Positions 6,201 to 64,000 of a DNA stretch of 64,000 nt are shown piece after piece. The stretch's first letter is position 1. Every line of letters begins with the position of its first letter. This stretch comes from a virus (Duplodnaviria > Caudoviricetes), in the IMG/VR virus record IMGVR_UViG_3300032232_001415, positions 90,653-154,652 of that record; one strand, written 5' to 3'. A program made the translations under genes and the position numbers. The notes under the pieces are model-generated. The model was not told the origin of the DNA. It saw only the letters and a list, made by a program, of their open reading frames with translations, and did not search any database.

Positions 6201-9200
6201 TATCAACGTGTCCATTATCAATCATTCTTTGATACTCTGCTCTTCTAGCTTTATAAATTTCTCTTATTAAATCTAGTGGTCTATCATGAAATTTATCTTG
6301 TGAATCTCTGGTAGCAGCATATTCTCTACGTCCTGATGTCATTATGTCAGACAGTTGTCTACTAGCCAAACTAGTCTTTAAATCTGGAGTTAATTCATCA
6401 ACAGACAATGTCCTTGATTTTTCGGCAACTTCTGGCGGGAATAAAAATTCATGCTGTTTCATTCTGCTATGCTGGGCTAGTGGATCTTTTTTCATTGAAG
6501 CATGAGACAGTCTGTATCTTTCTGCTTCTTTTATGGGCATTTCTAACATTCTTAGTTGTAAACTCAGCTTGTCTAAATCTGTTAAATCATCTGAATCTTG
6601 GGTTTGTGATCTTGATTGAGCATAAAATCTTAATGCTTTTGGAGCTTCACTCTCATCCATTGGGAAGAACCATCTTCTTCTGTTCGCTAAAATACCTCCT
6701 GGTTGTTCTGATAATGTTTGACTGTACTCTGATGAGCCTTTTTTGTCGCTTGGATTAGACGCTTCAACTCTCAAGAATCTAACAACTTCATCCAGTTTTG
6801 TATGTTGACCAGCGTATGGATACATTTTTTCATATCCTGGCTTAACACGCATATTAAGAGATCTAATTTGATCAGCAGTAGAGTATTGTATTGATGGCTC
6901 GTCTATATTAGACTGTCTTCTATTTCTTCCTATGGGGGATCCTTTTTGTCTAAGATTTGATCCAACGGAGGCTAATTGAAGCATATCTTCAGCAACTTGT
7001 AATCTTCCATGAAAAGATCCTAATTGTTGACTTTCGTGGAATGGACTAAGAACCCTGTTTGGTCCTTTACCCTGAGCATGTATCGATGGTATTCCTTGTT
7101 TATCTACTACTGTCTTTGTCATAGCATCATACCAACCATTATATTTTCCACTATTTTTTCCACTATCTAACCATGTTGTATAGTTGGGTGCGAAAGGTCT
7201 CTGGTCTTGTTTATTTATAGATGGCGATTCGGTTCCTTCTGTAATCTTAACATTTTCACTATGATAATATGGTTTTCCGCCTTTTTGTAAATAATTAACC
7301 ATTCCGCCTTTCTTGAATCCATAAGCTTTCATAACTTTTTTTAACATTTCTTGAGCCAAAGCATTTTGTCCAAATTTTGGATGATCCATTTTTTCAATCA
7401 GGCTAGTAAATAATTCATTTGGCTTAGCCCAAATATCATCAGAACTATAATCTTTTTGACCAGAATAAAGATCTGGCCAACCTTTTGGATCATATAGAAA
7501 ATCTTTAATATCATTTTTTATGACGCCTAACTTTCCTGCTTTGTATTGTGTTAAAGAATCTGTGCTGCGAAAAGTATGAGCACCACTAGAATGTTGTATA
7601 GCATGACCCATCTCATGTTGAACCATAGCTTCTGTGCTATTTCTATCTTTAAAAGCAAGGTGTGTTCCCCTGGGATCTAAAGTATTTGTTGTAGCTTCAC
7701 CCATCGCTGTAGGATGACCAATAGCACCTGGACCCCAAGATGTTGATCTAATTCCAAAGTCTTGTTTTCTAAGAGCTAGTAATCTAGCTACTCCTTTCGG
7801 ACCACTAGTATATGGCATTAATCTTGAGACGAGATCATTAGCAGATGCATGCATTTGATCAGAATTACTAACATCAATTAATTTTCTATTGCCATAAGTT
7901 TCGGTATTTTGAGGATCCTGATCATATTTTTGTTCAGAAGGTTGCATATCGCCAGGAAGTTGCATACCGCCAGGAAGTTGCATACCGCCAGGAAGTTGAC
8001 TATTACGACTACCGCCACCAACAGGTCGGTAGTTACCATTGGCTCCTGGAAGAGTAAACCCTCCATCTTGTAGATAAGCAACTAATCCTCCCAAACTCTT
8101 ATTTTGCGGTTTCATACCAGCAGCAGCTCTGTCTTTATCATTTGCAAAACGACCAAAAGATTTCTTATCAAGAAGCAATGGTCTACCATCTGGTCTAATA
8201 ATTCTAATATCACCATCAGATGTTACACTATCAAAACGACCCATAATAGATTCTTCTTCCTTACCATCATTATTTAAGTCCCATTTTTTATCACCATACC
8301 AAACTCTTTCGCCAAAAGCCAAGTTCGGCATTTCTCCTCTTCCAACAGAGCCAGATAAATATGGATACTTTTCTGCTTGTTTTTGTTTCATATCTCTTCC
8401 AGCTTTGCCAGATAAATATGGATATTTATCATCAAAATTAGGAGCACTAACCGGTGGCTTCGGAGCAGGAGTTGGTGACGGTTTTGATGGAGCACTAACC
8501 GGTGGCTTCGGAGCAGGAGTTGGCGACGGTTTTGATGGAGCACTAACCGGTGGCTTCGGAGCAGGAGTTGGCGACGGTTTTGTGTTAGTGCCAGTTGTAG
8601 GCGTGGGCGACCCCCCAATACTGCCCCATTTTACAGTATCTCTGATCGTTAAATCATCCGGCCCTCTGCCAGTTTTGGATAAATCCACCGGCTGAGATCT
8701 TCTATCTTTATCTTGTTGTTCTTTGATAGGTTGCTCTTTTAAGAATTTATTTCTGGCTTCTATTTGCTGTTTGAGCAACATTAATCTTTGCTTCAAACTT
8801 AAGTTTTCTGGATCCGGATAGCGACCAGACAATATTTCATCTAGGGTGGGACGTCTTCCTTTTAAGAAATCTCCATCTTTATCTCTTGGCATATTATCAG
8901 CAGAAGATTCTCCAAAAAATCTTCTTTTTGCATTAATTCTATCTGTCTGTGCTTTTCTATCTTTTGTATTCCATGGATTATATTCTCCTGGACGCAATGG
9001 TCTGTCTTTACCGACACCCTGAACTTCATCAAGAAGTGACGTTACATTTTTACGAGCATAGGACTCATCATCTTGATGCATCATAGGTAGCCTATCCCAT
9101 GCTTGGGAATTCATTCTGTCTTTCATTATCTTAGCATATACTGTATCAACACCAATATTATTACCTTTTTTATCTGTTTTAAATAAATCTTGTCCTAAAA

Positions 9201-12200
9201 TAGAGCGGAATGTTTTTTCATACCATGTACTAACCACCGGTGCTGGGCCGTATGGTTTGGGACGAGGACCACCATACTTGTCCTCCAGATATCCTTGAGT
9301 AACAGTAGGCACCTTCAAACCCCATTGAGCATAAACTACTCCACCATTATTCAAATGTTTAACATCTCCTCCCTTACTACTATTAATAGCTTTTAATAAA
9401 GGAAGATGTTGAGAGGTAGATCGCGCATTAACAACAAATTCTCCGGGTGTAAGCATCGCGGGAACAGTATCCGTTCCCTTAGGTTCAAAATTAATTAATT
9501 TACCCGAACTAGCGTATACTACTCCGCCACTGCTAAAACCACTACTAGCAGCAACTTTATCTAATGTCTTTTTAGTATCAGATGTTGTTCCATTTATATT
9601 TTTTAATAATGGATTAGCATAGTTTTGGTTTTTAATATTATTATCATAAATTTTACTACTAGTATCTTTACTAGATATACTGTTTATTCTAGTATCAGAA
9701 ACTAGTTTCTTAACATCTTTTATTTCTTTCAAGGCATTTTGATTATTAATATTTTGAGAAAAATCTGATCTAATTTTAGATGATGCTAATCCTCCATCGG
9801 CCAAATAATTTACTGATCCACCTTTGTTTTTATTAATAGACTGCAATAGTGGAAGATTTTCTTTGGTTGCTCGTGCATTAACTACAAATTCTCCAGGAGT
9901 AAGCATAGCAGGAACAGTATCCGTGCCTTTTGGTTCAAAATTAATTAATCTACCAGAACTAGCATATATCACACCTCCATTACTAAAGTTACCAGCAACC
10001 ATTCCAGTAACAGTATTTGGAAATAAGAATTGAGCAGTTTGTTGGCTTACTCCAAGATTATTTAATCGGGCCGCTGAAGTATTTGCATCTTCTCCTCTTT
10101 TAATAAATCCTTTGTCAATCATTCTATTAATTAAATTCATTCTAAGATTAGCTTGTTGTGCTCTGGTAAGTGAACTTCCTCTGGCTGCGGCTTTTTCAAA
10201 ACTAGACATAGTAGCAAGAGACTTTACGGCCAATGCTTGTTGTTGTCTTTCTAATAATGGTCTTCTTTGAATAGCAATTGCTTTGTCTCTGGGATTAGCA
10301 AGCTGTGTTATTTCATCATTACTAAGTTTAAGTATCTTTTTATCTGTTGCGCTTATTGTTCCTTGCTGAGACATAACATCTGCCCAAGCGCTAAGCTGTC
10401 TATCATTAAATGGCATGAATATAGCTTGAGCAGTATCTGCACTCATATTGTAGTTTTTTACAAAATATTCAATATTATCCTTAGCCAAACCACCAATATT
10501 CCATTTATCCTGTAATCTTCTTAATACATTTTTTCTCCATCCTTCTGCTCTTCTCGGATCAGTTGGAGGATTCATCCCTGATATACCGGCCACTAATTTA
10601 AATCTTTGTAAACTTCTTCTTTCAGCTTGAGAAGCTTCTCTTCTGTCTCTCATTCTTCTGGCAGACTCTGCTCGCGCTTCATCTTTTTTATCTGCTTCTA
10701 TTTTAGCTTTTTCATCACTCTTAGCCTTATCATATTCGTCCCATTTTTGTTTTCTTTCTTCAGGACTAAGATCTTTAAATTTAGCATTAGTATCTACAAT
10801 CTGAGTATTTACTTCATTTATTTTTCTACCATAATATGTTTCTATCTCTTTGATTTTTTTTGCATGGTCTGCTCTTTTACGTTCTAATATGATAGCATTA
10901 TTTTCTTTAGAATATCTACCCTCAGGTTTAATATCTGATCCATATAATTCATAATCTGCCATAGTAAGAACGGAACCTTGATCATCCATCTTTCTTTGTA
11001 AGCTTGCTCTAGCTTCAGTCATTTGTTGTTGCAGATATGCTCTTTGTCTTGCAAGCTTATCTACTTCTTCTATTTTTTCTGGTATTATTGGTTTATTTAT
11101 ATATTGATCAGCTTGTTTTGCTACAGCGGATGGAATTCTAACATTATTATATGTAGAAACTAAAGAACTTCCCAGATTTAACAAATTTTGTCCAGCATTC
11201 TGTATTCCTTCAATTCCTTGATTAATATTTTGTTCTAATCCTGGTCTTTCATAAGTATTAAACATAAATGTTTCATTTGCTTTGTGAGCTCTTTCTTCTT
11301 CTTTTCTTTTTTGCTCACTTTTAATCTCTTGTTCTTTCTGAAGGACAATATAATCATTAGTTAGTCTTTCTAACTTAGCATCTTCATCAGTATATCCTGA
11401 TCCACCTAAATATGGATTTTGATGCACCGGTAATGATCCATTCATGAAAAGAGAATTTCTTTCTCCATTCTGATTATATATTTCTTCCTTAAAGTTTTTA
11501 TCAAGATATTTATCAACATAGCCGATTGGATTGTTACTACTTAATGCTTGATCTATTGTGGATTGAGATAATCCTTGTTCTTGAGCAAATCTTGTAAAGC
11601 GGATTTCAAAAGTTAAGGTGTCTGTATCATACTTGCCTATTTCATTTCTTGCTTTTTCAATATCTCTTTTTACTCTTGCTCGTCTACGTGCCCATCTAAT
11701 CGCGGTTGTTGTGAATCCTTGTGTCATTTGAAATTCGCGACCACTAGCTGTACCAATTTCAGCAGATGGTAGTCCATAATTTCTTCTTTCAGTTTCCTGT
11801 CTAAGTCTTTCGGCTTCCGCGCTAGCGGAGGCAGCGCCACCAATAGCTACTGATGTTCTTCCTACTGCTGCTGGTATTCCTCTTCCTGGTATCCATGTGC
11901 TAGGACGAGAAATGCTCATATCTGTACCAAAAACATTTCCAACAATATTGGTTCCAATATTTCCTTCTTCCATTTGTTGTCTGGTTTCTTCGTTTTTTGC
12001 TCTAATATATGCTGGAGTATCATATACTGCTGATCCTATTTCATAAGCTGACTGCACACCAATTTCCGTAAGAATCATAGCAGGACCTTGAGGGGCACGT
12101 AATGGTGCTGGAGCATTAGGCCATATCACAGATGGCCTAGTTACTGGCATATTAGCAGCTGGTATTGCTGCTCTAAGTCCTTGTCTTCCTCCGCTTCTAT

Positions 12201-15200
12201 AGGCAGTATTTGCCGCTTGTGCTGTTAAACCAGATGCTCTTGATGGTAAACCAGCTGACTGAGCTGCTGTGACACCAATATCAGAAATTGCACCAATTTC
12301 TTCAACAACAATTCCTGCGTTTTCACCAGCCACAGCAGATACTGCTGCACCTCCAGCTGTTCTCAAAACATTTCTAGCAACATTACCACTAACTCCTGAT
12401 GAAGTAGCAGCGCTAAAAGCAGCAGAACCAGCCCTTGCTGCTCTTTGTCTCGCTGTTGGTTTGGGTTTTCCTGGTTTTGGCTGAGCATCCATATCTGCAA
12501 GAGCATCAGCAGCAGCATCAGCTGCTGTTACTGGCTTACTGCTTCCTTTTTTCAGATAAACTGGTCCACCACTATTTTTATTAATAGCATTTAATAATGG
12601 AAGATTATTTTTTGTGGCTCTTGAATTAACAACAAATTCTCCGGGACTCAACATTGCGGGAACAGTATCAGTTCCTCGTGGTATAAATTTACCAGAACTA
12701 GCATATACCATACCGCCGCTAGCTTTATTCATTACATTTCCTGGTCTTTGTATTCCTAATCCAATTTCTCTTAATTGTTGAGTATTAAAATTAATAGTTG
12801 TTTCGCTAATAGCTTTGCGAATAGCCTCTCCAGCAGTTTGAATTAATGTTATTTGCTGCTCATTTAATGTTCCAGCCAGAGCCTGAGTAGCATCACTCAA
12901 TGCTGTTTGTTGAACATCTATTAAAGCATTAAGTTGCTTTACTATAGGATCTTCACCAGTATCTTTTTCTAAAAGACTCAATGCTTTTGTAACAAATGGA
13001 TCATTTTGTAATCCATTATTTCTAGCCATACCTCTAATCATATCTGCTCTTAATTGATTACTTTCCTTGCCCTCAAGACCCATCATCTGAAGCATTTCAT
13101 TAAATGTAGCAAAAGCTTGTTTATTTTCATTAGAATATGCTTCTTGAGCAGCAGTCATAGCTTCCTGTTGTGTTCCACCATCTTTAATAATCTTACTATA
13201 AGCTTCATTAGCAGCTGCTGATTGTTGAATAGTTCTTATTTGACCATTTAATGTATTAGTGACTAATTCATATGAATTCCTCATATCCATAAGTTCTTGA
13301 GGAGTTCCAGTAACCATTTTTTCCGCAAATCCGACACTAGCTTGTCTTACTGTTTCTATTTTTGCAACTCTTTTTTGTATTTCATTCATAGCATCTTCAA
13401 TACTAGATTGTATGTTAGATGCTATATTTTTTAATCCATCTTTTGTTTTAGTTATCTGATTATTTAAGTCAGCAATTTGTCTTATAAAAGATTGTAGTTG
13501 AGCTTGAACTCTAGGATCAGCTAAGTTTGCACCAGAAGATTCAAAGGATCTTTTTTGTTCGCTAACTCTATTTAATTCTTGAGAAGCTATTTTATATGCT
13601 GCCATTAAATCAGTTGTATTTAAAGATCCTGTTTTAACACCAGCTTTAATTTCTGCTGCCTGAACTCTTGCTGATCCCCTTTCGCTTACTCCTACTTCTT
13701 TACCTAGTAATTCTTTTTGACGAATATCTATATTTTTTTGATTGACTATATTCTCTGCATATAAATTATTAATTTCGCTTTGTAAAGCTATTGATTTTTC
13801 AATTGCGTTAGCATAAATATTTAATCCTTCTTCTACTGCTGTTATGATCTTAGTAGTAGATTCCATTAATTGTTTATTAGCTTCTGTTAAATCATTTAGT
13901 CCAGTTAACTCATTAATAAACGCATCTAAGTCGAATTCTCCGCCCTCTTGTTTTTTAGCTCGTTGAGCATCAATAGCTGATGCTATTTGTTTACGCAGAT
14001 TATCTGTTAATCTATTATCTCCAAAAGATTTAATAAGCTTATCAGTTAATGCTCTTTGAATATTTTCAGCAGCTAATTCTGGATCAGTTCCTGCCTGTTG
14101 GGCCTGAGCGGCCATACTAGACGCTATGGTTCTAGCATCTCCACCAAAGGATGCTAATTGTTCAACAAATTTAGCATCAGAACCAAAGAAGCCACTAACT
14201 TGACGCATAGCCCCAGATTGTTGATTAGAACTATATGCATTAGGATTGCTAATTATATTTTTAGCATTGAACGATGTTTTTAAAGAAACCGTTCCATTAG
14301 CGATATCTTCTAATCTTGAACTAACATTTTGCAAAGAAACAGAAGTTTTTGCAACAGCAGAGTCCATATTTGCAAATGTACGACTAATAGAAACGGTTGA
14401 CATATTAATAGCTTTTGCTAGCTTTGATGAAGCTTTAGCTCTTTCAGCATCTGCTGCTGCTATTTGTAGTCCCGCCGTTTCTTGCTTAAAGTATGTTTCT
14501 ATAAGTGCTTTTTGTTCATTTCTGATTTCTTCCTTTGTAGCATCATCAGTATATTTATCTGCTAATGCTCTTTCTAGTTTAGCATTTTTTGCCTGAAATT
14601 CAGCACTACCTTCTGCTATCTGTTTTTTAACCGCATCTTGATTTGGACCTAAAGAACCCATGGCTGCTCCAAACCCTTTTCCGCTATATGCTGTAACTTG
14701 GTTACTCAATAATTTAATTGCAGCATCTGCACCCGCCCTATTTGTTGCTGCTCTTTCTTGACCAAGTTCAGTATCATTTTGTTTTGTAGTATTAAACATA
14801 TATCCGGCAGTTATATAATTACCGAATTTTTGCAATACTCCTGGTTGTTTAAGTTGATCATTTTTAGTTTGAATTTTACCTTCTTCTTCTGATATTGTTT
14901 TTATTCCTTGTAATACAGAGTTAGTTGCTGCTGTATCTTTTGCATTTCTTGATAGTCTTTCAAAATTTTTGTCAATACCAGCACTAGTATTTTCTATTTT
15001 CTTTTCACTTAATTCTTTTTCTGCTTGAGCTACTCCTTTATTATATCCTTCAACAGCTAAAACTGTTCCTGCTATAGCTCCAACTAAAGCACCGTATGGA
15101 CCAAATTGAGAACCTATGGAAACTGCTGTACCAAAAGCTGTTCCGCCAGCAGCAACTCCGGCGCCCTTTGCTCCTCCTATTGATGATCCAATATTTTCAG

Positions 15201-18200
15201 CAGCCATCGGAATAGCAAATGCTGCTGCTAGTCCTTTATTTTGCCAACTTGAAGTACTGTTTCTTCTAGCTTCTATTTGATCTTCGGTTAAAACTTTACC
15301 AGTTAATGTTGTTTTGCCAGTTACAAATCCTTTAACATTCTTTAGCATTCCTCCTGTTGTGCTAGCGGTTACCGAAGCGGCCTTGGATATTTGTTGGAAA
15401 AATCCAGCAGACTGCTTAGCGCTATTAGTCATGCTATTCACTATTTGATCTAAACGCGCCTGAGACATAGTAGAAGAAGATCTATTAATAAAAGGCGGAG
15501 GAGCAGCAATCTGACTTCCCCTAACTCGTCCTTCTGCTGGACCAAACAATGATTCATATTGATAAGTATATCCTATACCCCTATTTGGAGCAGAGGCTTC
15601 AAAAGCTTCTTGGCTGCCTCTAGTACCAACTTTTGTTGTATCTGCTCCTGGTCCTGTGATTCTACGATTACCTTTTACTCTGCCTCGTTCGTCAACCTCA
15701 AATCCTCCAACAACATCTCCTCTGGAGGCTGCTCTTCTTTCTAGTCTTGCTTGTTCTATATCTGCTCTGTTTACAGGTATGGCAGTAGAAGCTTTTTGTT
15801 CATCAGTTAATCTACTACCGCTAGAAGTTTTCAATTGTTGAGGAACCATAGACGTTGGTCCCTTAGGAGGACCTTGTATACTATCTGTAACTTCTTTTCT
15901 AGCCTTATCCAAAGCTTCTCCAAGACTCATTCCTCCCTTAATTAATTGTGCCGCAAGTTTTTTAGCCTGTTGCTCAAGACCCATATCATCCAAACTTTTT
16001 GTAAGTCCTCCATCAACAAATTTTTGCACAGTACCGACACTTCCACCCTTATTAAATCCTAGTATTTTATCAGCACGATTTAATTTATTTAATCTTGGTA
16101 ATCCTATACTTTGTGCCGCTCTTTTATTAATAACAAATTCACCAGGAGTTAAAAGAGCAGCAACAGTATCTTCTGAATGTCCTCCACTAGCAAATTTTCT
16201 AAACATTCCAGAATAACCCACTTTGCCGCCAGTATGAAATTTTGCCACTTCTTTTGACTCTGGAATTCCATATTGTTGTCTAAAATATCTTTGAAATTCT
16301 TTTATGGCTTTTCCTCTGCTTCCACTATCAATGGTTCTTTTAACTTCTGTGGGGATATTAGGATCAATACCAAATATTTTTGCTGCTTTAGGCCCAATAC
16401 CCATTGGGAAGTCAATTGGGCGAGTTCTTAAAGCATCATCTAATATTGTAGCATCTGCTGATCCAAAAATTTGCTCTAATAAAGCACCCTCAATATTACC
16501 TTGTCCTAATGTTTCTCGTTGTTTTTTTGTTAATTTCTTGGGAGATATTCCCAGAAGTTTGGATGCTCCTCCTACAATTTCTTCTGTTTTTCCACTAAGA
16601 TAATCAATTACATTTTGATATTGATTTGGTAAGCCTCTTTGAACTATTGAAGCATCTATTGATCTTTCTTGTCCAGATGAATCGACTCCAAGATTCCAAG
16701 TTTCTGGCCCTAATAGTCCAGTATAACCCAACGGATTTAATCCAACTAGCCCCAACTGCTGAGACGATAACACCGCACTAGTAGTATCTGATAATGCTTG
16801 TGCTGATTTGGTTCCTTGAGATTCATTAAATTTTTGTATTAAGTAATCTCTAGTAGCAAAATAATATGCTTGTTTTTCGGGATTAGTTGCTGGAGGTAAG
16901 CTGGTTTGCCAATATTTTAATTTACCTCCATCAGCAGTGTCTCTTACTGTTTTTCCTCCGAATGGACCAAAACTTGGATCACTTGGTAGTCTTTCAGATC
17001 CAAATCTTTTTAATATCTCTGTTCCTTGTGTTGGTAATATTCCAGAGGATTTCTTGACCTGGGTGGCCTTTTCTACATTTTGTAGTATTGCCGCTTCTAG
17101 TCCAGAAGGCATCGCTGTTGAAACTCCTCCAAATTCACCACTCATCTGTTCTGATAATTGCGATGCTATAGCTTCCTTTGTTATATCTGATGGCTGTGCG
17201 GATACTGAGGATTTTCTTGACGGATCTATTCCATAAGTTTCTGGATATTTAGCAGATAATGCTCTGATTATATTATGCGCCCTATATCCAAATGCTCCTT
17301 TAGACACTCTGTCTCTTTTATCTCTTATCTGTTTAACTTGATCAGCTATTTCTGGATAATTCTTCTTTAAATCAGCACTAACATTACCATAAGGACCACC
17401 AGGAGCATTTGATAATATTTCTGTAACCTCAGTATTGGATCGTGCTTTATCTTGATCAACAAATTTTTGTATTTCTTCAATTAGCATAGGAACCATAGTG
17501 CTACGATTACGTAATTGTGCTCTATTGCCCATTAATACTGATGCTATATCAGGATGCAAGAGGCTAGTTAGTGTTTTATCATCGCCATGAAATAACGCAT
17601 CTCTAACTTTGGTAGCGCTAATATCTTCTATTCTAGGAATGTCTTTAACATCTATTCCTGCTCTTTGGTATTTACCTAATGTTTTATCATCTTTACCAGA
17701 AGTTATTGCCATAGCTCCTTTTAGTTTAGCGAATTTTCTTCTATCTCCACTACCAGCAACTTCCATAAATTTTGATAAACCGCCAGCAGGCTGACCTTGA
17801 GTGCTAATCATAGCATTTCCAAAATTAATTTGGCTGAATAAAGCTCTTAAATCTTCTTGAAAAATACCATATCGTGCAGCATGATCTATTCCTTCTTTAC
17901 CAACAACCATTGGAAGATCCGTGGCAACATTAACAACAATATCTTCTAAAGAAGCGTTTGGATTTTTAGCTAACATATTCTCTAATAAGGTATCTAATGC
18001 TCCTCTGTGTCCTCTGGTTGGAGGAGCAAAACCGCCCATATAAAATCCACCAGCCTGAACCATTTCCGGTAATTCACTATCTTTTTTACGTCTTAAACCA
18101 AAACTATCTTTTTTTCTTCCAAGAACAGTGGCTTTTTTACCCAATTCGTCTCGTAGTATAGTTTCTTCCAAAGCAAAATCAGCGTCAGCTCCTCTTGTGG

Positions 18201-21200
18201 TTCCTGGTTTACGACCATATAAGCCTTCTCCTGTAGTATCTCTACTATCTCTATTTAATCTAATCTGATCTTGCTCACCTCTATTATTAGAACTTAATAC
18301 ATATGCTCTATCAACATCTTTTAAATAAGCATCTAGCTTAGACTGACTAGCTGTGGAAGTTAATACAATGACTTCATTAACTTTTTCTATATCTTCGGGC
18401 GTTAATATTTGAGAGCGAACTGTTTTTCTTAAAGTCGCATCATCAGTTGCTCCTTTGCCAGTTGCCAAACTACTTTTTCCACTTCCAGCAGCTCCAGCAA
18501 TAGCTCTAAACTTAGATAATGATCCAGTTTTTCTGGCTTTAGCAGCTAACTCTCCAAGCTTTGTTGTATAATCACTAACATCTGTTATTCCAAGTTTTTC
18601 CATTGCTTTATCAACAATACTAGCATTTGCAGGATCTCTTAAAACATCAGTATCAACTATCCCGATATTTCTTAATACCTGTCCTCCAGCACCATAAGCT
18701 TGTCTTTTAATACCAGCATTACTGAATAATTCATTTAGCGTAGAATCTAAAATTCCCTGCATATTAGAGTCTAGTTTAGGAGCGTTCTGAATAAGAGTAG
18801 TTAAAAATTCTTCTTTACCATAATCTTCTACTTTTCCTATCGTATCTTGTCTCTGTCCACCTTTTAACAGTATCTCATTAATTTTTGGATTGATTGGTCG
18901 ATACTCTCTAGCATTTTTCTTTTGTCCAGACTCTACCCACATAGAGTATGCTTCTTTAGATAGTTCAGGATTTGCGCCTCTTCCCCCGAAGTTCATAGTT
19001 TCTTGTCTCAAATTTTGTAAAACAGTATCAAGTAAACCATTCTTATAAGAGCGTCCATAAACAACATCAGCACTATTATAACTTCCACCCAATGCATCAA
19101 ATGCGTCTGCAAGACCATCATTGTCTCCATTAAATAATTGAGACACTCTTTCTTTATATTTTGTAAAACTATCTTCTGATTGGGTTCGTAAAGAATTCAA
19201 TAATTGATGTGTTAATTCATGATATAAAACATTTTTTGGTTGATTACGATCAAAAGCATTACTAGCCATCGAAACAAATCCTCGACCTGTTGATTCTAAA
19301 ATGCCCTTCTTTTGCTCCATAAGACCTTTACGAGCAACTGCTTTTTTGCTCATTATATCTGATACTTTCTTACCCAATGCCATTTTTTCATCCATAGATT
19401 TATTAAAAGCCACAGTATCATAACTGAATGATCCATCTTCATATGTTGTTACTGGTGTTTTTAAGATTTTTTTGGTTTCTTTTGTTTTTTCATCTAGTAG
19501 TTTTTGGTATCCAAATAAATCTTGTTCATCAGCTTGTGTGAATCCAAAAGGTTCTAATCCTTTATCGTCATATCCCTGAGCCCCAAAAGGATCTCTACTA
19601 AATTTTCCACGATATCCATAAGTTTGTAATTTACCACCAAAATCTATAGTTTGTGGTAAAACTTTACTTAAGTCTTCTTCTGGTAATCCTATAAATTTAG
19701 CAAAATCTGATAGATTACCCAATAATTCATTACGGCTAATTTTGGTATTAAATAAACTTAAAAATCTTTTACGATCAAAAGGTTCGCTCTGGAATTTTTG
19801 TTGTACTTCTGCAGGATCGACCGTTATTCTTTCATTGGTAGGATAAGGATCGAAAGCATTATTTACTCTTTCTAGATCTAGTTTTTTCTGCAATTCTTTA
19901 GCATAAGCATTAGTAATACGCTTAGGAAATTTTGTCTCTCCTGTTCCAAAGGGTATAGCTTCTGCTTTTCCTCCAGCCATAAATTTTTGAATCATTCCTC
20001 CAATATTTTTCTTTTGTATTTTTGAAGATCCAGCTGGAGAAAAGTCTTTAATTGTCTCTTCAACAGTTTTTCCAGGAAATCTTTTTTTATATTCTTCTTT
20101 TGTCATTGAGCTAGCAGCGCCACTACCATATGGTACTGCTAATCCAGAACTCATTAATTTATTAGCTAATTCATTATCTTCTAATAAAATTCTACCATAT
20201 TTTTCATTTTTTTTATTTCCTGATGGTCTCAATAATTTTAATATATCTTGATTAGATTTTGTTTTATAATGATCTGTAGCAACTTCTTTAGCTTTTAAGC
20301 CCAATGTTTTTTGCCAACTATTTTTTCTTCCTCCTTTATTTGTTACTTCAAAAGCATCAACTCCTAAGAGTCTTGTTCCTGTATCAAAAGGATCATCTGT
20401 TGGAGTTACATTGATATTCAATGTATCTCCATCAGTAACTCTATTTAAGTTATTGACAGAAACTATTCCTCCAATAGCATATTTTTTTCTTTTTCTTGAT
20501 GCTCCAGACTTAATAGTGCCTCCAATTCCATATTTATTCATTCTATGTAAATTACTAGCCCCTATAGTCTGCACAGCCCTTTTGCGTATAACAAATTCTC
20601 CAGGCTCTAACATTGCTGGAACAGTATCTCCATCACCGCTACCAGGAACAACTCCTCCTCTGGCAAATTTATGTATCATTCCACCACTATTTTTTTTTGT
20701 TGTTCTTAAACCTCCTGCAAAACCGGTTGCAAATTGACCTAAAGCACTTACTCCTCTAATAGCAGTAATAGCAGTTAGTGCTGGAATAACACCCTTAGCA
20801 GCATCTGCTATTCTTATAAGTCCACTAGTTAAATCAAGAGACATTTTAATAAAGTTTTGGAATCCACTATCATTTCCAATTGATCTAATTAAAGCTGTAA
20901 ACTCTTCTCTTACTTTTGTAAGCTGAACAGCAAATGCTTGTTGTGCTGTGGTAGCATCTCTTGCCAATGAACCTTGTCCTCTTTGAGCAACTACCAATGC
21001 TTGTTGTGCTGTTGCAAATTCTTGAATAAGTGGTATAACTTTACCAATTTGTCGGAATCCACCAAGTTCTTCAACTATTCTACTAAATCTTAGATCTCTA
21101 GGATCTAATTGACTAAGACCAGCACTTAGTCTTTTAACAGCTTCATATGGCCCAACGAATTTTCCTTGTAAATCTGTTAAGTTAACTCCAAATTCTTTTA

Positions 21201-22248
21201 AGGCCTCTATAGTTCCGCCTCTTTGAACACGAGTAAAAATTGTTCTTAAACCAGTAGCAATAGTTTCTGCGCTTTCACGAGTTGTTGCTCTTACACTAGT
21301 AAATACTGCTAAAAATTCATTCAATGCGTCTTTACCTTCGCTAACTCCTCTGCTAGATGCGGCAAAAACACCACCGGTACGCTGAATAGCAGTAATTAAG
21401 TCGCTAGATTCAACGGCGAATTTAGCAGCAACAGCATTGACAGATCCTAGTGCTGATCCGAGATCTTTAGCACTAATACCGAACTGTCTCATAAGGGCGA
21501 TACTTCCTTCTACTGTCTCACTTAAATTATCGAAAGATGGAGCAAGAGCACTTTGGGCCAAAGCTTCTAGGGCCTTTTCTGTATCTCTTGCGCTCAAACC
21601 AGCCTGAGCTAGTGTGCTGGAAACACTGATTAATTCTCTAGATGAAACACCAAGGCTTGTGGATAGTCCAGTAATTTGATTAACAAGCTTGCTAAGATCT
21701 GATATGGAGGTATCTGTTACCTGAGAAACTCTAACTAACTCTCTATTAAAATCAATAAAATCTTTAGATGCTGATGATATTGCATTTCCAATTTTATATA
21801 CAGCCCCGGTAACAGTTGCAAATGCGGCAAATCTACGAATAGCAAGAGCGCCTTGTCTTCCAAATTCTTCAAATTCTGTTCTAGCCTGTTGTACAGCTTT
21901 TGCTGATTTATTAGCATTACTAGTCAATTGATTATTAGCACTAGCAGCACTTTGAATAGCTCTTGGTAAAGAACTAATATTAGATACTGTTTGTTGTGCA
22001 GTTCTTGATAACGTGGCTAAACTAGTATTAGCTTGTCTAGATAATGTGGAAGTATTTCTTAGACTATCATTAAGTCTATTAAATGCTTGAGAAAGATTAG
22101 AGACATTTCTTGCCACACTAGGATCTATTTTTACACTAACATTAGCATCAATTGTTCCTAGCTGTCTACGAATATCTGCAACTACTGTGCGAATATTTGA
22201 TGGACCACGAAGATTAATTTCTGCTGTTAAATTAAATCCTTTAGCCAT
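3226..22248 (-). CDS. Giant tail tape measure protein (6340 aa) with multiple embedded enzymatic cargo domains
   Basis: N-terminal TP901-type TMP core (FNRELVRVSQVT...RESAETIATGLRTIFTRVQ); Gly/Ala hydrophobic segment near 15030-15240 followed by long helical regions; six copies of the TMP-associated DTVPAMLxPGEFV motif; position right after the tail tube and chaperone genes; AGGA RBS. Confidence 0.93.
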   Translation of the reverse strand: MAKGFNLTAEINLRGPSNIRTVVADIRRQLGTIDANVSVKIDPSVARNVSNLSQAFNRLNDSLRNTSTLSRQANTSLATLSRTAQQTVSNISSLPRAIQSAASANNQLTSNANKSAKAVQQARTEFEEFGRQGALAIRRFAAFATVTGAVYKIGNAISSASKDFIDFNRELVRVSQVTDTSISDLSKLVNQITGLSTSLGVSSRELISVSSTLAQAGLSARDTEKALEALAQSALAPSFDNLSETVEGSIALMRQFGISAKDLGSALGSVNAVAAKFAVESSDLITAIQRTGGVFAASSRGVSEGKDALNEFLAVFTSVRATTRESAETIATGLRTIFTRVQRGGTIEALKEFGVNLTDLQGKFVGPYEAVKRLSAGLSQLDPRDLRFSRIVEELGGFRQIGKVIPLIQEFATAQQALVVAQRGQGSLARDATTAQQAFAVQLTKVREEFTALIRSIGNDSGFQNFIKMSLDLTSGLIRIADAAKGVIPALTAITAIRGVSALGQFATGFAGGLRTTKKNSGGMIHKFARGGVVPGSGDGDTVPAMLEPGEFVIRKRAVQTIGASNLHRMNKYGIGGTIKSGASRKRKKYAIGGIVSVNNLNRVTDGDTLNINVTPTDDPFDTGTRLLGVDAFEVTNKGGRKNSWQKTLGLKAKEVATDHYKTKSNQDILKLLRPSGNKKNEKYGRILLEDNELANKLMSSGLAVPYGSGAASSMTKEEYKKRFPGKTVEETIKDFSPAGSSKIQKKNIGGMIQKFMAGGKAEAIPFGTGETKFPKRITNAYAKELQKKLDLERVNNAFDPYPTNERITVDPAEVQQKFQSEPFDRKRFLSLFNTKISRNELLGNLSDFAKFIGLPEEDLSKVLPQTIDFGGKLQTYGYRGKFSRDPFGAQGYDDKGLEPFGFTQADEQDLFGYQKLLDEKTKETKKILKTPVTTYEDGSFSYDTVAFNKSMDEKMALGKKVSDIMSKKAVARKGLMEQKKGILESTGRGFVSMASNAFDRNQPKNVLYHELTHQLLNSLRTQSEDSFTKYKERVSQLFNGDNDGLADAFDALGGSYNSADVVYGRSYKNGLLDTVLQNLRQETMNFGGRGANPELSKEAYSMWVESGQKKNAREYRPINPKINEILLKGGQRQDTIGKVEDYGKEEFLTTLIQNAPKLDSNMQGILDSTLNELFSNAGIKRQAYGAGGQVLRNIGIVDTDVLRDPANASIVDKAMEKLGITDVSDYTTKLGELAAKARKTGSLSKFRAIAGAAGSGKSSLATGKGATDDATLRKTVRSQILTPEDIEKVNEVIVLTSTASQSKLDAYLKDVDRAYVLSSNNRGEQDQIRLNRDSRDTTGEGLYGRKPGTTRGADADFALEETILRDELGKKATVLGRKKDSFGLRRKKDSELPEMVQAGGFYMGGFAPPTRGHRGALDTLLENMLAKNPNASLEDIVVNVATDLPMVVGKEGIDHAARYGIFQEDLRALFSQINFGNAMISTQGQPAGGLSKFMEVAGSGDRRKFAKLKGAMAITSGKDDKTLGKYQRAGIDVKDIPRIEDISATKVRDALFHGDDKTLTSLLHPDIASVLMGNRAQLRNRSTMVPMLIEEIQKFVDQDKARSNTEVTEILSNAPGGPYGNVSADLKKNYPEIADQVKQIRDKRDRVSKGAFGYRAHNIIRALSAKYPETYGIDPSRKSSVSAQPSDITKEAIASQLSEQMSGEFGGVSTAMPSGLEAAILQNVEKATQVKKSSGILPTQGTEILKRFGSERLPSDPSFGPFGGKTVRDTADGGKLKYWQTSLPPATNPEKQAYYFATRDYLIQKFNESQGTKSAQALSDTTSAVLSSQQLGLVGLNPLGYTGLLGPETWNLGVDSSGQERSIDASIVQRGLPNQYQNVIDYLSGKTEEIVGGASKLLGISPKKLTKKQRETLGQGNIEGALLEQIFGSADATILDDALRTRPIDFPMGIGPKAAKIFGIDPNIPTEVKRTIDSGSRGKAIKEFQRYFRQQYGIPESKEVAKFHTGGKVGYSGMFRKFASGGHSEDTVAALLTPGEFVINKRAAQSIGLPRLNKLNRADKILGFNKGGSVGTVQKFVDGGLTKSLDDMGLEQQAKKLAAQLIKGGMSLGEALDKARKEVTDSIQGPPKGPTSMVPQQLKTSSGSRLTDEQKASTAIPVNRADIEQARLERRAASRGDVVGGFEVDERGRVKGNRRITGPGADTTKVGTRGSQEAFEASAPNRGIGYTYQYESLFGPAEGRVRGSQIAAPPPFINRSSSTMSQARLDQIVNSMTNSAKQSAGFFQQISKAASVTASTTGGMLKNVKGFVTGKTTLTGKVLTEDQIEARRNSTSSWQNKGLAAAFAIPMAAENIGSSIGGAKGAGVAAGGTAFGTAVSIGSQFGPYGALVGAIAGTVLAVEGYNKGVAQAEKELSEKKIENTSAGIDKNFERLSRNAKDTAATNSVLQGIKTISEEEGKIQTKNDQLKQPGVLQKFGNYITAGYMFNTTKQNDTELGQERAATNRAGADAAIKLLSNQVTAYSGKGFGAAMGSLGPNQDAVKKQIAEGSAEFQAKNAKLERALADKYTDDATKEEIRNEQKALIETYFKQETAGLQIAAADAERAKASSKLAKAINMSTVSISRTFANMDSAVAKTSVSLQNVSSRLEDIANGTVSLKTSFNAKNIISNPNAYSSNQQSGAMRQVSGFFGSDAKFVEQLASFGGDARTIASSMAAQAQQAGTDPELAAENIQRALTDKLIKSFGDNRLTDNLRKQIASAIDAQRAKKQEGGEFDLDAFINELTGLNDLTEANKQLMESTTKIITAVEEGLNIYANAIEKSIALQSEINNLYAENIVNQKNIDIRQKELLGKEVGVSERGSARVQAAEIKAGVKTGSLNTTDLMAAYKIASQELNRVSEQKRSFESSGANLADPRVQAQLQSFIRQIADLNNQITKTKDGLKNIASNIQSSIEDAMNEIQKRVAKIETVRQASVGFAEKMVTGTPQELMDMRNSYELVTNTLNGQIRTIQQSAAANEAYSKIIKDGGTQQEAMTAAQEAYSNENKQAFATFNEMLQMMGLEGKESNQLRADMIRGMARNNGLQNDPFVTKALSLLEKDTGEDPIVKQLNALIDVQQTALSDATQALAGTLNEQQITLIQTAGEAIRKAISETTINFNTQQLREIGLGIQRPGNVMNKASGGMVYASSGKFIPRGTDTVPAMLSPGEFVVNSRATKNNLPLLNAINKNSGGPVYLKKGSSKPVTAADAAADALADMDAQPKPGKPKPTARQRAARAGSAAFSAATSSGVSGNVARNVLRTAGGAAVSAVAGENAGIVVEEIGAISDIGVTAAQSAGLPSRASGLTAQAANTAYRSGGRQGLRAAIPAANMPVTRPSVIWPNAPAPLRAPQGPAMILTEIGVQSAYEIGSAVYDTPAYIRAKNEETRQQMEEGNIGTNIVGNVFGTDMSISRPSTWIPGRGIPAAVGRTSVAIGGAASASAEAERLRQETERRNYGLPSAEIGTASGREFQMTQGFTTTAIRWARRRARVKRDIEKARNEIGKYDTDTLTFEIRFTRFAQEQGLSQSTIDQALSSNNPIGYVDKYLDKNFKEEIYNQNGERNSLFMNGSLPVHQNPYLGGSGYTDEDAKLERLTNDYIVLQKEQEIKSEQKRKEEERAHKANETFMFNTYERPGLEQNINQGIEGIQNAGQNLLNLGSSLVSTYNNVRIPSAVAKQADQYINKPIIPEKIEEVDKLARQRAYLQQQMTEARASLQRKMDDQGSVLTMADYELYGSDIKPEGRYSKENNAIILERKRADHAKKIKEIETYYGRKINEVNTQIVDTNAKFKDLSPEERKQKWDEYDKAKSDEKAKIEADKKDEARAESARRMRDRREASQAERRSLQRFKLVAGISGMNPPTDPRRAEGWRKNVLRRLQDKWNIGGLAKDNIEYFVKNYNMSADTAQAIFMPFNDRQLSAWADVMSQQGTISATDKKILKLSNDEITQLANPRDKAIAIQRRPLLERQQQALAVKSLATMSSFEKAAARGSSLTRAQQANLRMNLINRMIDKGFIKRGEDANTSAARLNNLGVSQQTAQFLFPNTVTGMVAGNFSNGGVIYASSGRLINFEPKGTDTVPAMLTPGEFVVNARATKENLPLLQSINKNKGGSVNYLADGGLASSKIRSDFSQNINNQNALKEIKDVKKLVSDTRINSISSKDTSSKIYDNNIKNQNYANPLLKNINGTTSDTKKTLDKVAASSGFSSGGVVYASSGKLINFEPKGTDTVPAMLTPGEFVVNARSTSQHLPLLKAINSSKGGDVKHLNNGGVVYAQWGLKVPTVTQGYLEDKYGGPRPKPYGPAPVVSTWYEKTFRSILGQDLFKTDKKGNNIGVDTVYAKIMKDRMNSQAWDRLPMMHQDDESYARKNVTSLLDEVQGVGKDRPLRPGEYNPWNTKDRKAQTDRINAKRRFFGESSADNMPRDKDGDFLKGRRPTLDEILSGRYPDPENLSLKQRLMLLKQQIEARNKFLKEQPIKEQQDKDRRSQPVDLSKTGRGPDDLTIRDTVKWGSIGGSPTPTTGTNTKPSPTPAPKPPVSAPSKPSPTPAPKPPVSAPSKPSPTPAPKPPVSAPNFDDKYPYLSGKAGRDMKQKQAEKYPYLSGSVGRGEMPNLAFGERVWYGDKKWDLNNDGKEEESIMGRFDSVTSDGDIRIIRPDGRPLLLDKKSFGRFANDKDRAAAGMKPQNKSLGGLVAYLQDGGFTLPGANGNYRPVGGGSRNSQLPGGMQLPGGMQLPGDMQPSEQKYDQDPQNTETYGNRKLIDVSNSDQMHASANDLVSRLMPYTSGPKGVARLLALRKQDFGIRSTSWGPGAIGHPTAMGEATTNTLDPRGTHLAFKDRNSTEAMVQHEMGHAIQHSSGAHTFRSTDSLTQYKAGKLGVIKNDIKDFLYDPKGWPDLYSGQKDYSSDDIWAKPNELFTSLIEKMDHPKFGQNALAQEMLKKVMKAYGFKKGGMVNYLQKGGKPYYHSENVKITEGTESPSINKQDQRPFAPNYTTWLDSGKNSGKYNGWYDAMTKTVVDKQGIPSIHAQGKGPNRVLSPFHESQQLGSFHGRLQVAEDMLQLASVGSNLRQKGSPIGRNRRQSNIDEPSIQYSTADQIRSLNMRVKPGYEKMYPYAGQHTKLDEVVRFLRVEASNPSDKKGSSEYSQTLSEQPGGILANRRRWFFPMDESEAPKALRFYAQSRSQTQDSDDLTDLDKLSLQLRMLEMPIKEAERYRLSHASMKKDPLAQHSRMKQHEFLFPPEVAEKSRTLSVDELTPDLKTSLASRQLSDIMTSGRREYAATRDSQDKFHDRPLDLIREIYKARRAEYQRMIDNGHVDKDAPHMKRRMEALDKEEFDLTRRVQKTLEKPITLPEDYMSLYKGGIVYAQEGSYIPFKSPRAKALNDRRIQGEKVQEEKQKAAMLDRLRKQLNAELAPTGNRAMSELQQRLRASGYLEGKKQRKDAAIDKEEYEQIKFALDMIEEYKRFQYSQIPVNNKFDSEAEKTRRRNTPQLPPPLPHLTPQSKQYGGMVNYLQNGGLSSDDMALREKIDRDIRERAKWEAERPKREGIEKRRMEKELRKKEIAERREAISELKVNILGPKPNGGGEGLFGKDRGSGYDGRWKGEYAKLPNNIEALKRIRDEKLYTPEGMSKTQASFDNVFRSAQTQTQRRKEEFKGYDKTDFIMGFMIDSDTNLTRLKDGYLTKDELSVIFKFWDINKDGLLQANELDPQNRKLPDILNKSLRPKQNILDPEIGSLDPEAGVKRLNPKTESLPHETMGPRDPAVNTPPPRPNRQESTFAGAGQYAKINVTDFDTMIAAREEFIQKLLPYTSSPEGAKKLISKSKSGENKHKNRIGFGGSLNYGVDLKEFPESEWGRGRFMGRAGAEKRGLPETDNGMMFNKEQIQKGVVQHEMAHALQDISTRGGMGYTQDMYEGKISDGYGKKTDISADVNNYLTNKAGWSLVQKLHRGRTGHDTLYQTQMPGMEVFTNMVQFMDLIKGSSQQDIDRAMYNDADTVNINDFNNLYDNTLKLIMKSMGYKRGGIVYASAGTLVPYQPKGTDTVPAMLTPGEFVVNRESTQKHLPLLKSINAGAYATGGEVYKEEAERKRKAYQDEMERRRRSYREDKDMRSLVSARKYEDSGRSLPSGLQSRLSSIQDRDPLTYNTMRNYNANLGYMAPSLTNSQNTTKNDSPEFGQILTTLTQSSRDFNNAITVATKALQDYQRQIVSGGATTGNSVSNNGAPNNIGLDGLSQFTDKFNNFVSELQKINLPPIINVEGTHKVEVVINGASALQNILQGPIGDLVRDSVKNAFDKLRASTEGGISIN
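3907..4098 (-). repeat. TMP linker repeat copy 6 (YKRGGIVYASAG...PKGTDTVPAMLTPGEFVVN...LPLLKSIN...YATGG)
   Basis: Motif read from the translation; boundaries approximate. Confidence 0.9.
7941..7998. repeat. 18-bp tandem repeat, about 3.2 copies, encoding QLPGGM
   Basis: gttgcataccgccaggaa at 7941 (1 mismatch), 7959 and 7977. Confidence 0.95.
8441..8582. repeat. 48-bp tandem repeat, about 3 copies, encoding Pro-rich KPSPTPAPKPPVSAPS
   Basis: Units start at 8441, 8489 and 8537; near-identical with a single t/c difference. Confidence 0.97.
9320..9540 (-). repeat. TMP linker repeat copy 5 (FSSGGVVYASSG...PKGTDTVPAMLTPGEFVVN...LPLLKAIN)
   Basis: Motif read from the translation; boundaries approximate. 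Confidence 0.9.
9790..9990 (-). repeat. TMP linker repeat copy 4 (FSNGGVIYASSG...PKGTDTVPAMLTPGEFVVN...LPLLQSIN)
   Basis: Motif read from the translation; DNA similar to copy 5, differing mostly at third codon positions. Confidence 0.9.
12544..12730 (-). repeat. TMP linker repeat copy 3 (ASGGMVYASSG...GTDTVPAMLSPGEFVVN...LPLLNAIN)
   Basis: Motif read from the translation; boundaries approximate. Confidence 0.9.
16005..16245 (-). repeat. TMP linker repeat copy 2 (FHTGG...FASGGHSEDTVAALLTPGEFVINKRA...FNKGG...FVDGG)
   Basis: Motif read from the translation; boundaries approximate. Confidence 0.9.
20540..20700 (-). repeat. TMP linker repeat copy 1 (SGGMIHKFARGG...GDTVPAMLEPGEFVIRKRA)
   Basis: Motif read from the translation; boundaries approximate. 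Confidence 0.9.
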
Positions 22249-28014: not shown

Positions 28015-28353
28015 CTATGATGGATTACCACTTGGTGGAAGTATGGTTACTGTGCCATCTTCATTCATGGTAAATTGGCCAACAACCGATGATCCTTCAG
28101 CTATAGCAGCAGCATCTATTGTGGAAATTAATTGACCTAATTTATAATGAAGACTAAATAATTCTTTACCATTATTGCCCAAGGCTAAAGCTATTTGTTC
28201 AGGAGTAGCATTAGGATTGTCCCAAAACATTTTAGACCCTCTATTAAATACTCCAAGCATATTATTATATATATTTTTTGCTTGTAATTTTAGTGATTCT
28301 GCAATTTCAGTTGGTGTTTTTGGTGGCTCTTTTCTGCTTAAATCTAGTGGCAT
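28015..28353 (-). CDS. Hypothetical protein
   Basis: 112-aa ORF overlapping the upstream gene end, GGAG RBS. Confidence 0.7.
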   Translation of the reverse strand: MPLDLSRKEPPKTPTEIAESLKLQAKNIYNNMLGVFNRGSKMFWDNPNATPEQIALALGNNGKELFSLHYKLGQLISTIDAAAIAEGSSVVGQFTMNEDGTVTILPPSGNPS

Positions 28354-55261: not shown

Positions 55262-55551
55262 TATATATTCTCTCTATTATATGATAATATATCAATATAA
55301 GTGCTTGTAATATTCAGTTGATTATTAATTTTATTAAAACTTAAAATATCTAATAATCCAAAAGACATATTAAGATTAGTAGTATTTTTAGAATATGATG
55401 CTATATCTATTAAAGAATATGTATGATTAAGTTGATCTGTGGATTTTGAAAATGAAAAAATTTCTAAACTTGAGAATGTATGATTTAAATTTTCCCAAGT
55501 ATTTCCTGTTGTTCTGGATATTGGTCCAAAAAAAGTAGGTAAAAATGTCAT
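55261..55551 (-). CDS. Small protein of four tandem 19-aa repeats
   Basis: ENLNHTFSSLEIFSFSKST / DQLNHTYSLIDIASYSKNT / TNLNMSFGLLDILSFNKIN / NQLNITSTYIDILSYNREN. Confidence 0.65.
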   Translation of the reverse strand: MTFLPTFFGPISRTTGNTWENLNHTFSSLEIFSFSKSTDQLNHTYSLIDIASYSKNTTNLNMSFGLLDILSFNKINNQLNITSTYIDILSYNRENI

Positions 55552-63983: not shown

Positions 63984-64000
63984 GAGATGGTAGGAGGTAA

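Follow-up and report, generated by a model that had tools for sequence, protein, structure and literature searches.

Enzymes that join a kinase to a nucleotidyltransferase (NTase) of the HIGH superfamily are well established: NadR, coenzyme A (CoA) synthase and FAD synthetase are bifunctional proteins of this kind, each performing two consecutive steps on one cofactor precursor. Among phages, the NadR-like enzyme Bas30_86 converts nicotinamide riboside (NR) to nicotinamide adenine dinucleotide (NAD) and, together with the PnuC importer, rebuilds NAD against Sir2-HerA (PMC13464706), and phage NadR, NadM and NadV have been surveyed (PMC9503650). Here we describe a kinase–NTase module in a 64,000-nucleotide stretch of a Caudoviricetes genome (IMG/VR record IMGVR_UViG_3300032232_001415, positions 90,653 to 154,652), referred to below as the window. 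Bifunctional enzymes of this composition are thus already known; what is different here is the reversed domain order, the novel sequence and the fusion to a virion protein. The module is held in a single uninterrupted open reading frame (ORF) of 6,340 amino acids (3226..22248, minus strand), encoding a multi-domain (polyvalent) protein anchored on a tape measure protein (TMP).

Our favoured reading, to which we assign a probability of about 0.6, is that residues 1189-1600 form one compact bifunctional kinase/NTase cassette, accessory to the TMP, for the two-step conversion of a nucleotide-type metabolite. Because related uncultured phages acquire or lose the kinase and the NTase together, the cassette is probably a delivered metabolic enzyme pair. 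Both of its catalytic centres are apparently intact.

Fold and motifs of the two domains

The P-loop kinase-fold domain (residues 1189-1391; 18076..18684, minus strand) is followed by the NTase domain (residues 1392-1614; 17407..18075, minus strand). An AlphaFold2 (AF2) model of residues 1180-1620, built from a 34-row alignment, reached a predicted local distance difference test score (pLDDT) of 89.1 and a predicted TM-score (pTM) of 0.83, indicating a defined packing between the two domains. According to VIA-align analysis, model residues ~215-408 superpose on HIGH-superfamily enzymes, led by the NMNAT of M. jannaschii (1f9a; Z 13.7, 153 residues, root-mean-square deviation (rmsd) 2.8), a PPAT (4nah; Z 13.6) and NadM (2qjo; Z 13.3). 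Several NaMNAT chains (Z 10.9-11.9), NadR (8x7f; Z 11.1), FAD synthetase (2x0k; Z 10.3), TmcAL (5y0r; Z 10.0), several cytidylyltransferase chains (Z about 8-9.7) and several ATP sulfurylase chains (Z 6.6-9.2) followed. The superpositions on 1f9a, 4nah and 2qjo covered 143-166 residues at rmsd 2.6-3.4; the domain thus has the Rossmann-like superfamily fold whose absence, according to the first-pass annotation of this DNA, would have refuted its NTase assignment. Foldseek returned NadM (6e-5) and PPAT (4e-4) at a probability of 1.00. Together with the profile searches, these comparisons describe a cytidylyltransferase/PPAT/NMNAT-like NTase with a long C-terminal helix.

The motifs of the domain were assessed in 73 homologous modules aligned with MAFFT, which are 30-87% identical to that of the window; all motif counts refer to this alignment unless stated otherwise. 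GGFAPPTRGH (residues 1405-1414; 18007..18036, minus strand), the (T/H)xGH signature, stands at the end of NTase strand 1, with G1405 and P1409 conserved in 72/73, T1411 in 69/73, and G1413 and H1414 in 73/73. ISATKVR (residues 1543-1549; 17602..17622, minus strand), the ISxTxxR signature, has S1544 and R1549 in 73/73 and T1546 in 72/73, and R1539 upstream of it is likewise invariant (73/73). A seven-sequence profile searched against the PDB found MJ0951/UPF0348 best (3gmi, E 1e-5) and also touched FAD synthetase, NadR, PPAT and NMNAT, NadR at E 0.054 and through the first motif only; a second profile aligned the whole NTase domain to TagD (1coz, E 0.017) and to 1f9a. In the profile alignment, the counterparts of ISATKVR are ISGTKIR in MJ0951 and ISSTRIR in an FAD synthetase, and the ISxTxxR motif was matched in the 3gmi, 3op1, 1coz and 1f9a alignments.

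By sequence alone, little else was recognizable. PF01467 gave no hit in the window protein at its gathering score, and relatives reached only E 0.014-0.018, below the cut-off; membership of the NTase is therefore at the level of the superfamily, by fold and motif, outside the curated PF01467. Scans of the module with Pfam, PHROGs and NCBIfam yielded sub-threshold matches only (PF16581, E 0.023; PhoH, E 0.065; phrog_395, E 0.0016; ArfB, E 0.11), and a single-sequence phmmer search against the PDB returned no match. The structural neighbours in BFVD were mostly uncharacterised phage proteins labelled 'cytidyltransferase-like'.

The kinase domain, folded alone with AF2 (residues 1189-1391), scored pLDDT 90.6 and pTM 0.87, and VIA-align placed it among zeta-toxin-like and nucleoside monophosphate (NMP) kinase-like folds. 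Its top match, and the only one with Z>8, was the gonococcal zeta_1 toxin (6epg/6eph, Z 8.1-8.2), superposed over 150-152 residues at rmsd 3.8-3.9 and spanning model residues 5-203. Archaeal adenylate kinases and UMP/CMP kinases matched at Z 6.1-6.8, thymidylate kinase, dephospho-CoA kinase and polynucleotide kinase at Z 5.7-5.8, AvrRxo1 at Z 5.0-5.7, the zeta chain 1gvn at Z 4.8 and human NRK1 at Z 4.4-4.6; NadR was not among the 50 best matches. A strand-helix-helix extension ahead of the P-loop strand was aligned only by chains of the zeta family (6epg/6eph, AvrRxo1, 1gvn), whereas kinases outside that family align to the model only from about residue 50. The zeta-likeness of the modelled domain is suggestive. 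PF06414 (zeta toxin) hit neither the window protein nor nine relatives, and because nothing past the P-loop is recognizable by sequence, we regard the domain as a new sequence family. Kinase and NTase are both new sequence families inside well-known folds.

The Walker A motif, or P-loop, is GAAGSGKSS (residues 1252-1260; 18469..18495, minus strand), in which G1252, K1258 and the serine or threonine at 1259 are each present in 73/73, G1255 in 68/73 and G1257 in 70/73. D1286 (18391..18393, minus strand), invariant in 73/73 and placed by the model just past strand β2, may be the catalytic base of the kinase. D1313 (72/73) and R1336 (71/73) are nearly invariant in the same half; in a further alignment (A4), R1239 and R1278 are invariant and R1346 is conserved in at least 90%. 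R1336 and R1346 are candidate arginines of the LID region. The N-terminal strand of the domain, RNIGIVDTDVLRDPANA (residues 1193-1209; 18622..18672, minus strand), carries the family consensus GYIDxDVLxDPxNA, with R1193, G1196, D1199, D1201 and V1202 conserved in at least 90% of alignment A4, and is modelled as the first β-strand. Its DxDVL segment resembles the DxDxV of HAD-type phosphatases; we rejected a HAD-phosphatase reading, as in the fold this strand belongs to the sheet of the P-loop domain.

These results bear out the architecture proposed by the first-pass annotation, a P-loop kinase fused to a HIGH-family NTase: both folds could be modelled, with the NTase directly behind the kinase, and the three motifs on which it relied are in place, with GAAGSGKS at residues 1252-1259 (18472-18495), GGFAPPTRGH at 18007-18036 and ISATKVR at 17602-17622. 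In the models, each motif occupies the structural setting that its fold leads one to expect.

Compared with the known bifunctional enzymes, the module shares with NadR and Bas30_86 the combination of a HIGH-superfamily NTase and a P-loop kinase in one polypeptide used by phages (PMC13464706, PMC9503650), and the NTase domain superposes on that of NadR (Z 11.1). In NadR and Bas30_86, however, the NMNAT comes first and a ribosylnicotinamide kinase second, whereas the module begins with its kinase, which appears structurally nearer to zeta toxins and NMP kinases than to riboside kinases. Moreover, Bas30_86 is a soluble early gene product, whereas the module lies inside a virion TMP and two relatives lack PnuC. 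We rejected NadR membership on the domain order, the missing sequence match and the missing PnuC in these two relatives. CoA synthase and CoaD likewise offer a TxGH-type HIGH NTase and a P-loop kinase (PPAT Z 13.6; dephospho-CoA kinases about Z 5-5.8), but CoA synthase has the opposite domain order and the module has no membership at the sequence level; relative to PPAT, the ISGTxxR motif and the long C-terminal helix bring the module NTase nearer to the NMNAT, TmcAL or FAD-synthetase types. With zeta toxins and AvrRxo1, the module kinase may have in common a helical extension at the N-terminus of its P-loop kinase fold, and AvrRxo1 is injected and acts on NAD; the module kinase differs in its ~11-14% identity, the lack of a PF06414 match and of an antitoxin, and its much smaller size (~200 residues).

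A stand-alone phage enzyme with a PPTxGH motif, of the sort the first-pass annotation had mentioned for T4-like phages, is carried by the T4-like cyanophage S-PM2: the Synechococcus phage protein S-PM2p139 (DUF6267 + PF01467) is an uncharacterised HIGH NTase with a GxFxPPTxGH motif (GRFNPPTTGH), to which the window domain is similar at the motif level only. Unlike the module, it has no P-loop domain, and its gene lies in a replication/nucleotide-metabolism region and does not encode a virion protein. We considered and rejected this S-PM2 'cytitidyltransferase' as a kinase–NTase fusion, its N-terminal half being DUF6267 without a P-loop.

Joint inheritance of kinase and NTase

Searched exhaustively with phmmer, residues 1180-1620 retrieved 89 hits at E<=1e-3 from 1.84 billion representatives, 70 of them below 1e-30. 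Both halves of the module were covered in 72 of the 89, and nearly all two-domain hits are internal parts of proteins of 3,000-7,000 residues that open with the same TMP domain. Copies at 83-86% identity lie on six IMG/VR contigs of 71-150 kb, and dN/dS for the module was 0.13-0.19 against three close IMG/VR relatives. The motifs of the module are real, selected features and not chance matches. Neither 50,697 records of cultured phages (tblastn) nor the GTDB genomes contained a detectable copy, and the cassette-bearing phages thus belong to an uncultured lineage for which GTDB offers no host clue. One relative is labelled a Sphingobacteriia metagenome-assembled genome in NCBI, a weak hint as to the host.

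In metagenomes, at least 520 clusters of TMPs of 3,500-11,000 residues share the N-terminus of the ORF, on contigs of up to 238 kb. Co-inheritance was examined with a separate hidden Markov model for each half in the best 120 of 520 giant homologues of the TMP N-terminus, which are 57-73% identical to the window there. Both halves were present in 49 and neither in 71; no protein had one half alone. A median of 2 residues separates the halves, and the kinase precedes the NTase in 49/49 giants and in ~72/72 homologues, an order opposite to that of NadR and CoA synthase, as the first-pass annotation had remarked. The TMPs closest to the window at the N-terminus lack the cassette, which indicates that it moves into and out of closely related TMPs as a single unit. 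This unit swapping and the both-or-neither distribution argue for an accessory cassette of the effector kind, whose two enzymes depend on each other functionally, and not for a structural part of the tail.

The region downstream of the module (residues 1601-1900; 16549..17448, minus strand) has no recognizable fold and travels with it: homologues of residues 1601-1735 and 1736-1900 were found in 19 and 21 of the 49 cassette-bearing giants, respectively, and in 0/71 of the cassette-free ones. No Pfam, PHROG or PDB profile matched residues 1601-1900; an OmpA-C-like similarity of residues ~1786-1876 seen with the single sequence (E ~0.02) was rejected when it vanished with the family profile.

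A profile search for stand-alone relatives yielded two family members only, both already among the phmmer hits. A stand-alone family member, P0090, is a complete ORF of 279 residues (gene 132-971 of a 1,740-bp ENA scaffold, L010) in which the NTase is preceded by no more of the kinase domain than its C-terminal half, lacking the P-loop; it matches S-PM2p139 at E 4e-3. Going by this ORF, an NTase without an active kinase may exist outside the giant proteins.

The giant protein and its tail gene cluster

The 6,340-residue ORF occupies the TMP slot of a tail gene cluster. Its N-terminal tape measure domain (residues 1-530; 20659..22248, minus strand) matches PF10145 (PhageMin_Tail, E 1.1e-24) and phrog_28 (tail length tape measure, E 5e-28), and annotated TMPs of cultured Bacillus, Streptomyces and Rhodococcus siphophages match the N-terminus at 20-26% identity (tblastn). 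With both the PF10145 match and the position in the cluster, the protein qualifies as a TP901-family TMP, and the first-pass placement of the module on a virion protein is upheld to the extent that the polypeptide opens with a tape measure domain within a tail gene cluster. In the direction of transcription, the ORF is preceded by tail-fibre-like and baseplate-wedge-like genes and then, directly upstream, two small unassigned ORFs; a gene of >1,064 residues follows it.

Directly after the first TMP linker lies a staphylococcal-nuclease-like endonuclease domain (residues ~598-720; 20089-20457, minus strand; phrog_452, E 3.6e-8), and HExxH peptidase motifs are visible in the translation. One polypeptide thus combines a TMP, the endonuclease, the kinase and the NTase, several unrelated enzymatic domains as expected of a polyvalent protein. 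An ADP-ribosyltransferase domain was not detected in it with Pfam or PHROGs. Among the giant TMP relatives (P0092-P0195), some have Pfam hits to the ADP-ribosyltransferase exotoxin family PF03496 (P0146), EF-hands (PF13202) and SHD1 (PF03983), and a recurring GG...DTVPAMLTPGEFV linker was found in all 120 listed giant TMPs.

The polyvalent phage proteins described by Iyer et al. (2017, PMC5512222) resemble the ORF in being huge, in joining unrelated enzymatic domains, in their predicted co-delivery with the DNA and in their shuffled cassettes; they differ in that the anchor of the ORF is a TP901-type TMP and not MuF or a similar domain. In a term search of that article, neither a tape measure anchor nor 'adenylyltransferase' nor a HIGH-superfamily NTase came up; the two 'nucleotidyltransferase' mentions returned concern Pol-beta NTases, and the P-loop passage returned concerns SMS/RadA.

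Elsewhere in the cluster, a 243-residue ORF (28344-29075, minus strand) is weakly sulfotransferase-like, matching phrog_3347 ('Galactose-3-O-sulfotransferase', E 2e-5) and, just under the cut-off, PF03567 (E 7.5e-4); its sequence hints at a possible sulfation of virion or host glycans. This neighbour led us to consider whether the module might be a PAPS synthase, that is, an APS kinase joined to an ATP sulfurylase. We rejected this, as ATP sulfurylases lie far below NMNAT and PPAT among the structural matches, TxGH and ISxTxxR are not sulfurylase signatures, and APS kinase is not among the kinase matches listed. Very large tail-, fibre- and baseplate-like proteins of 848 to >2,414 residues are encoded at 29075-31621, 31623-37274, 44536-50172, 51177-53885, 55548-56729 and 56739-63998, all on the minus strand; they have lectin-like repeats in common with cyanophages such as S-SKS1 and further matches to BppL_N, Mtd_N, phage-tail repeats and collagen repeats.

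Candidate substrates and roles of the cassette

In the mechanism we favour, the first half of the cassette would be a P-loop phosphotransferase of the NMP-kinase/zeta-toxin fold and the second, joined almost without a linker, an NTase of the PPAT/NMNAT type. If both are active and coupled in one pathway, they would take one small nucleotide-type metabolite through two successive reactions, each dependent on ATP. The substrate could be phosphorylated and then adenylylated, following the logic of NadR or FAD synthetase, or it could be adenylylated first and the resulting dinucleotide phosphorylated on a hydroxyl, following that of CoA synthase or AvrRxo1. The cassette would be carried in the virion and act in the cytoplasm of the host during genome ejection or immediately afterwards; we infer this delivery because the cassette is fused to a TMP and by analogy with polyvalent proteins (PMC5512222).

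The closest structural neighbours of the two domains intersect, by analogy, at two metabolites: NAD or nicotinic acid adenine dinucleotide (NaAD), which NMNAT or NaMNAT would make and an AvrRxo1-like enzyme phosphorylate, and dephospho-CoA, which PPAT would make and a P-loop kinase 3'-phosphorylate. An NAD-type metabolite, to be rebuilt or else modified or poisoned, is our leading candidate, held tentatively and at less than even odds. A CoA-type substrate comes next at distinctly poorer odds, and the remainder falls to other or novel substrates. As the first-pass annotation cautioned, the sequence does not reveal the substrate. NMNAT and PPAT tie as structural neighbours of the NTase.

Several points weigh against the favoured reading. 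Known TMP-embedded enzymes target the cell wall, in a compartment beyond the cytoplasm that lacks ATP, and a cytoplasmic ATP-requiring pair on a TMP would therefore be unusual. Processing of the polypeptide could also keep the cassette out of the virion. For the kinase, Pfam, NCBIfam and the PDB gave no sequence match past the P-loop that would support any particular family, its zeta match at Z ~8 is at the level where VIA-align warns of a mere common arrangement, and a few homologues, such as P0043, show a degraded glycine pattern in the P-loop.

Among the alternatives, the rebuilding of NAD in the manner of NadR and NARP3 survives best, though we consider it doubtful. The kinase would phosphorylate NR and the NTase would adenylylate the resulting nicotinamide mononucleotide, so that a pre-made enzyme counters NAD-depleting defences. 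The highest-ranking NTase matches are mostly NMNAT, NadM, NaMNAT and NadR chains, archaeal NMNAT has the ISGTxxR variant in the profile alignments, and phage NadR-like enzymes that restore NAD have been demonstrated experimentally (PMC13464706; PMC9503650). However, PPAT ties with NMNAT (Z 13.6 vs 13.7), the kinase appears unlike riboside kinases (NRK1 Z 4.4-4.6; NadR outside the 50 best), the domain order is reversed, and the NCBIfam and Pfam models of NadR and NMNAT gave no hit. In addition, PnuC (PF04973), the NR importer that NARP3 requires, NadV and a second PF01467 gene were all absent from two IMG/VR relatives, G001 and G002, estimated to be 87% and 95% complete. The first-pass annotation thus stands in its architecture and fold; its specific proposal of NAD salvage is not supported, given a kinase nearest to zeta toxins and NMP kinases, the lack of PnuC and NadV in these relatives and the PPAT tie. 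Its further suggestions, injection as virion cargo and the feeding of an ART-like cassette, are conjectural.

It is less likely that the cassette is a CoA-synthase-like pair, in which the PPAT-like domain would convert 4'-phosphopantetheine to dephospho-CoA and the kinase would phosphorylate the adenosine 3'-OH. AvrRxo1-type zeta kinases perform the same chemistry, phosphorylation of an adenosine 3'-OH (PMC5087710), and PPAT is a joint top structural match of the NTase. Six dephospho-CoA kinase entries, including mouse CoA synthase, are among the kinase matches (Z 4.7-5.8), but they rank below zeta toxin and the NMP kinases. The TxGH motif of the module, with Thr and not His, is the form of bacterial PPAT; no CoaD or CoaE model was hit by sequence, however, and we know of no phage–host conflict centred on CoA.

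Equally improbable in our estimate is a host-poisoning effector, whose zeta/AvrRxo1-like kinase would turn an essential nucleotide metabolite into a dead-end phosphorylated UDP-sugar or phosphorylated NAD/NaAD at entry, and so halt host metabolism, while the NTase supplies or binds the metabolite. Zeta-family kinases phosphorylate UDP-sugars (PMC5923241), and AvrRxo1, an injected effector that phosphorylates NAD and NaAD at the adenosine 3'-OH (PMC5087710, PMC5491322), is among the structural matches, of which zeta_1 is the best, covering the whole domain as the only one with Z>8. The cassette is accessory and shuffled in the manner of conflict effectors. In ESM-Atlas, the neighbours were viral clusters annotated Zeta_toxin/AAA_33/APS_kinase together with CTP_transf_like at 0.83-0.88 (those with Zeta_toxin plus CTP_transf_like at 0.86-0.88), which, lying below the 0.9 level, are leads only. 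Nevertheless, a Z of ~8 is marginal, PF06414 is not hit, a strictly co-inherited NTase is not needed by a toxin, and the producing cell would have to tolerate the toxin during late expression.

A role in the producing cell late in infection, for instance in making an activated precursor for virion modification, with the TMP fusion serving co-expression only, appears slightly less probable still. The required ATP and cytoplasmic substrates are certainly present before assembly, folded domains of 45 kDa fit poorly in the tail lumen, and the sulfotransferase-like ORF nearby in the tail cluster is a hint that virion parts are chemically modified. On the other side, ATP sulfurylase is a poor match to the NTase (Z 9.2 or less), APS kinase is not in the kinase list, a nuclease and HExxH peptidase motifs stand on the same polypeptide, and fusion to a virion protein is the hallmark of injected polyvalent effectors (PMC5512222).

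Least probable, and very much so, is nucleic-acid end processing, in which a polynucleotide-kinase-like domain and an NTase would work on the ends of RNA or DNA, e.g., in the repair of tRNA cleaved by defences: polynucleotide kinases (4gp6 Z 5.7, Pnkp1 Z 5.0, mammalian PNKP Z 4.8-4.9) and the tRNA-modifying HIGH NTase TmcAL (Z 10.0) are among the matches, and the TmcAL relative MJ0951 is the best sequence-profile hit, but small-molecule enzymes rank above all of these, neither a ligase nor a phosphatase was recognized as a partner, and HIGH NTases are not, to our knowledge, known to seal nucleic acids.

Returning to the bifunctional cassette, its furthest-reaching form, in which a pre-made ATP-dependent pair borne on the TMP is freed into the cytoplasm before any gene expression and rebuilds or diverts NAD (most plausibly) or CoA, is a possibility that we put forward tentatively, as less likely than not to be correct in full. 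If true, it would be the first cytoplasmic cofactor-metabolism cargo to pass through a phage tail, made up of enzyme families without a sequence-detectable link to NadR, CoaD/E or zeta toxins. The NAD-rebuilding counter-defences described so far (NARP1-3) are genes expressed after entry, and a virion-borne pair would act earlier. Tape measure proteins would then be extended from cell-wall enzymes to cytoplasmic metabolism. The cassette is a clean, testable unit of ~420 residues, and its substrate would reveal over which metabolite phage and host compete as infection begins.

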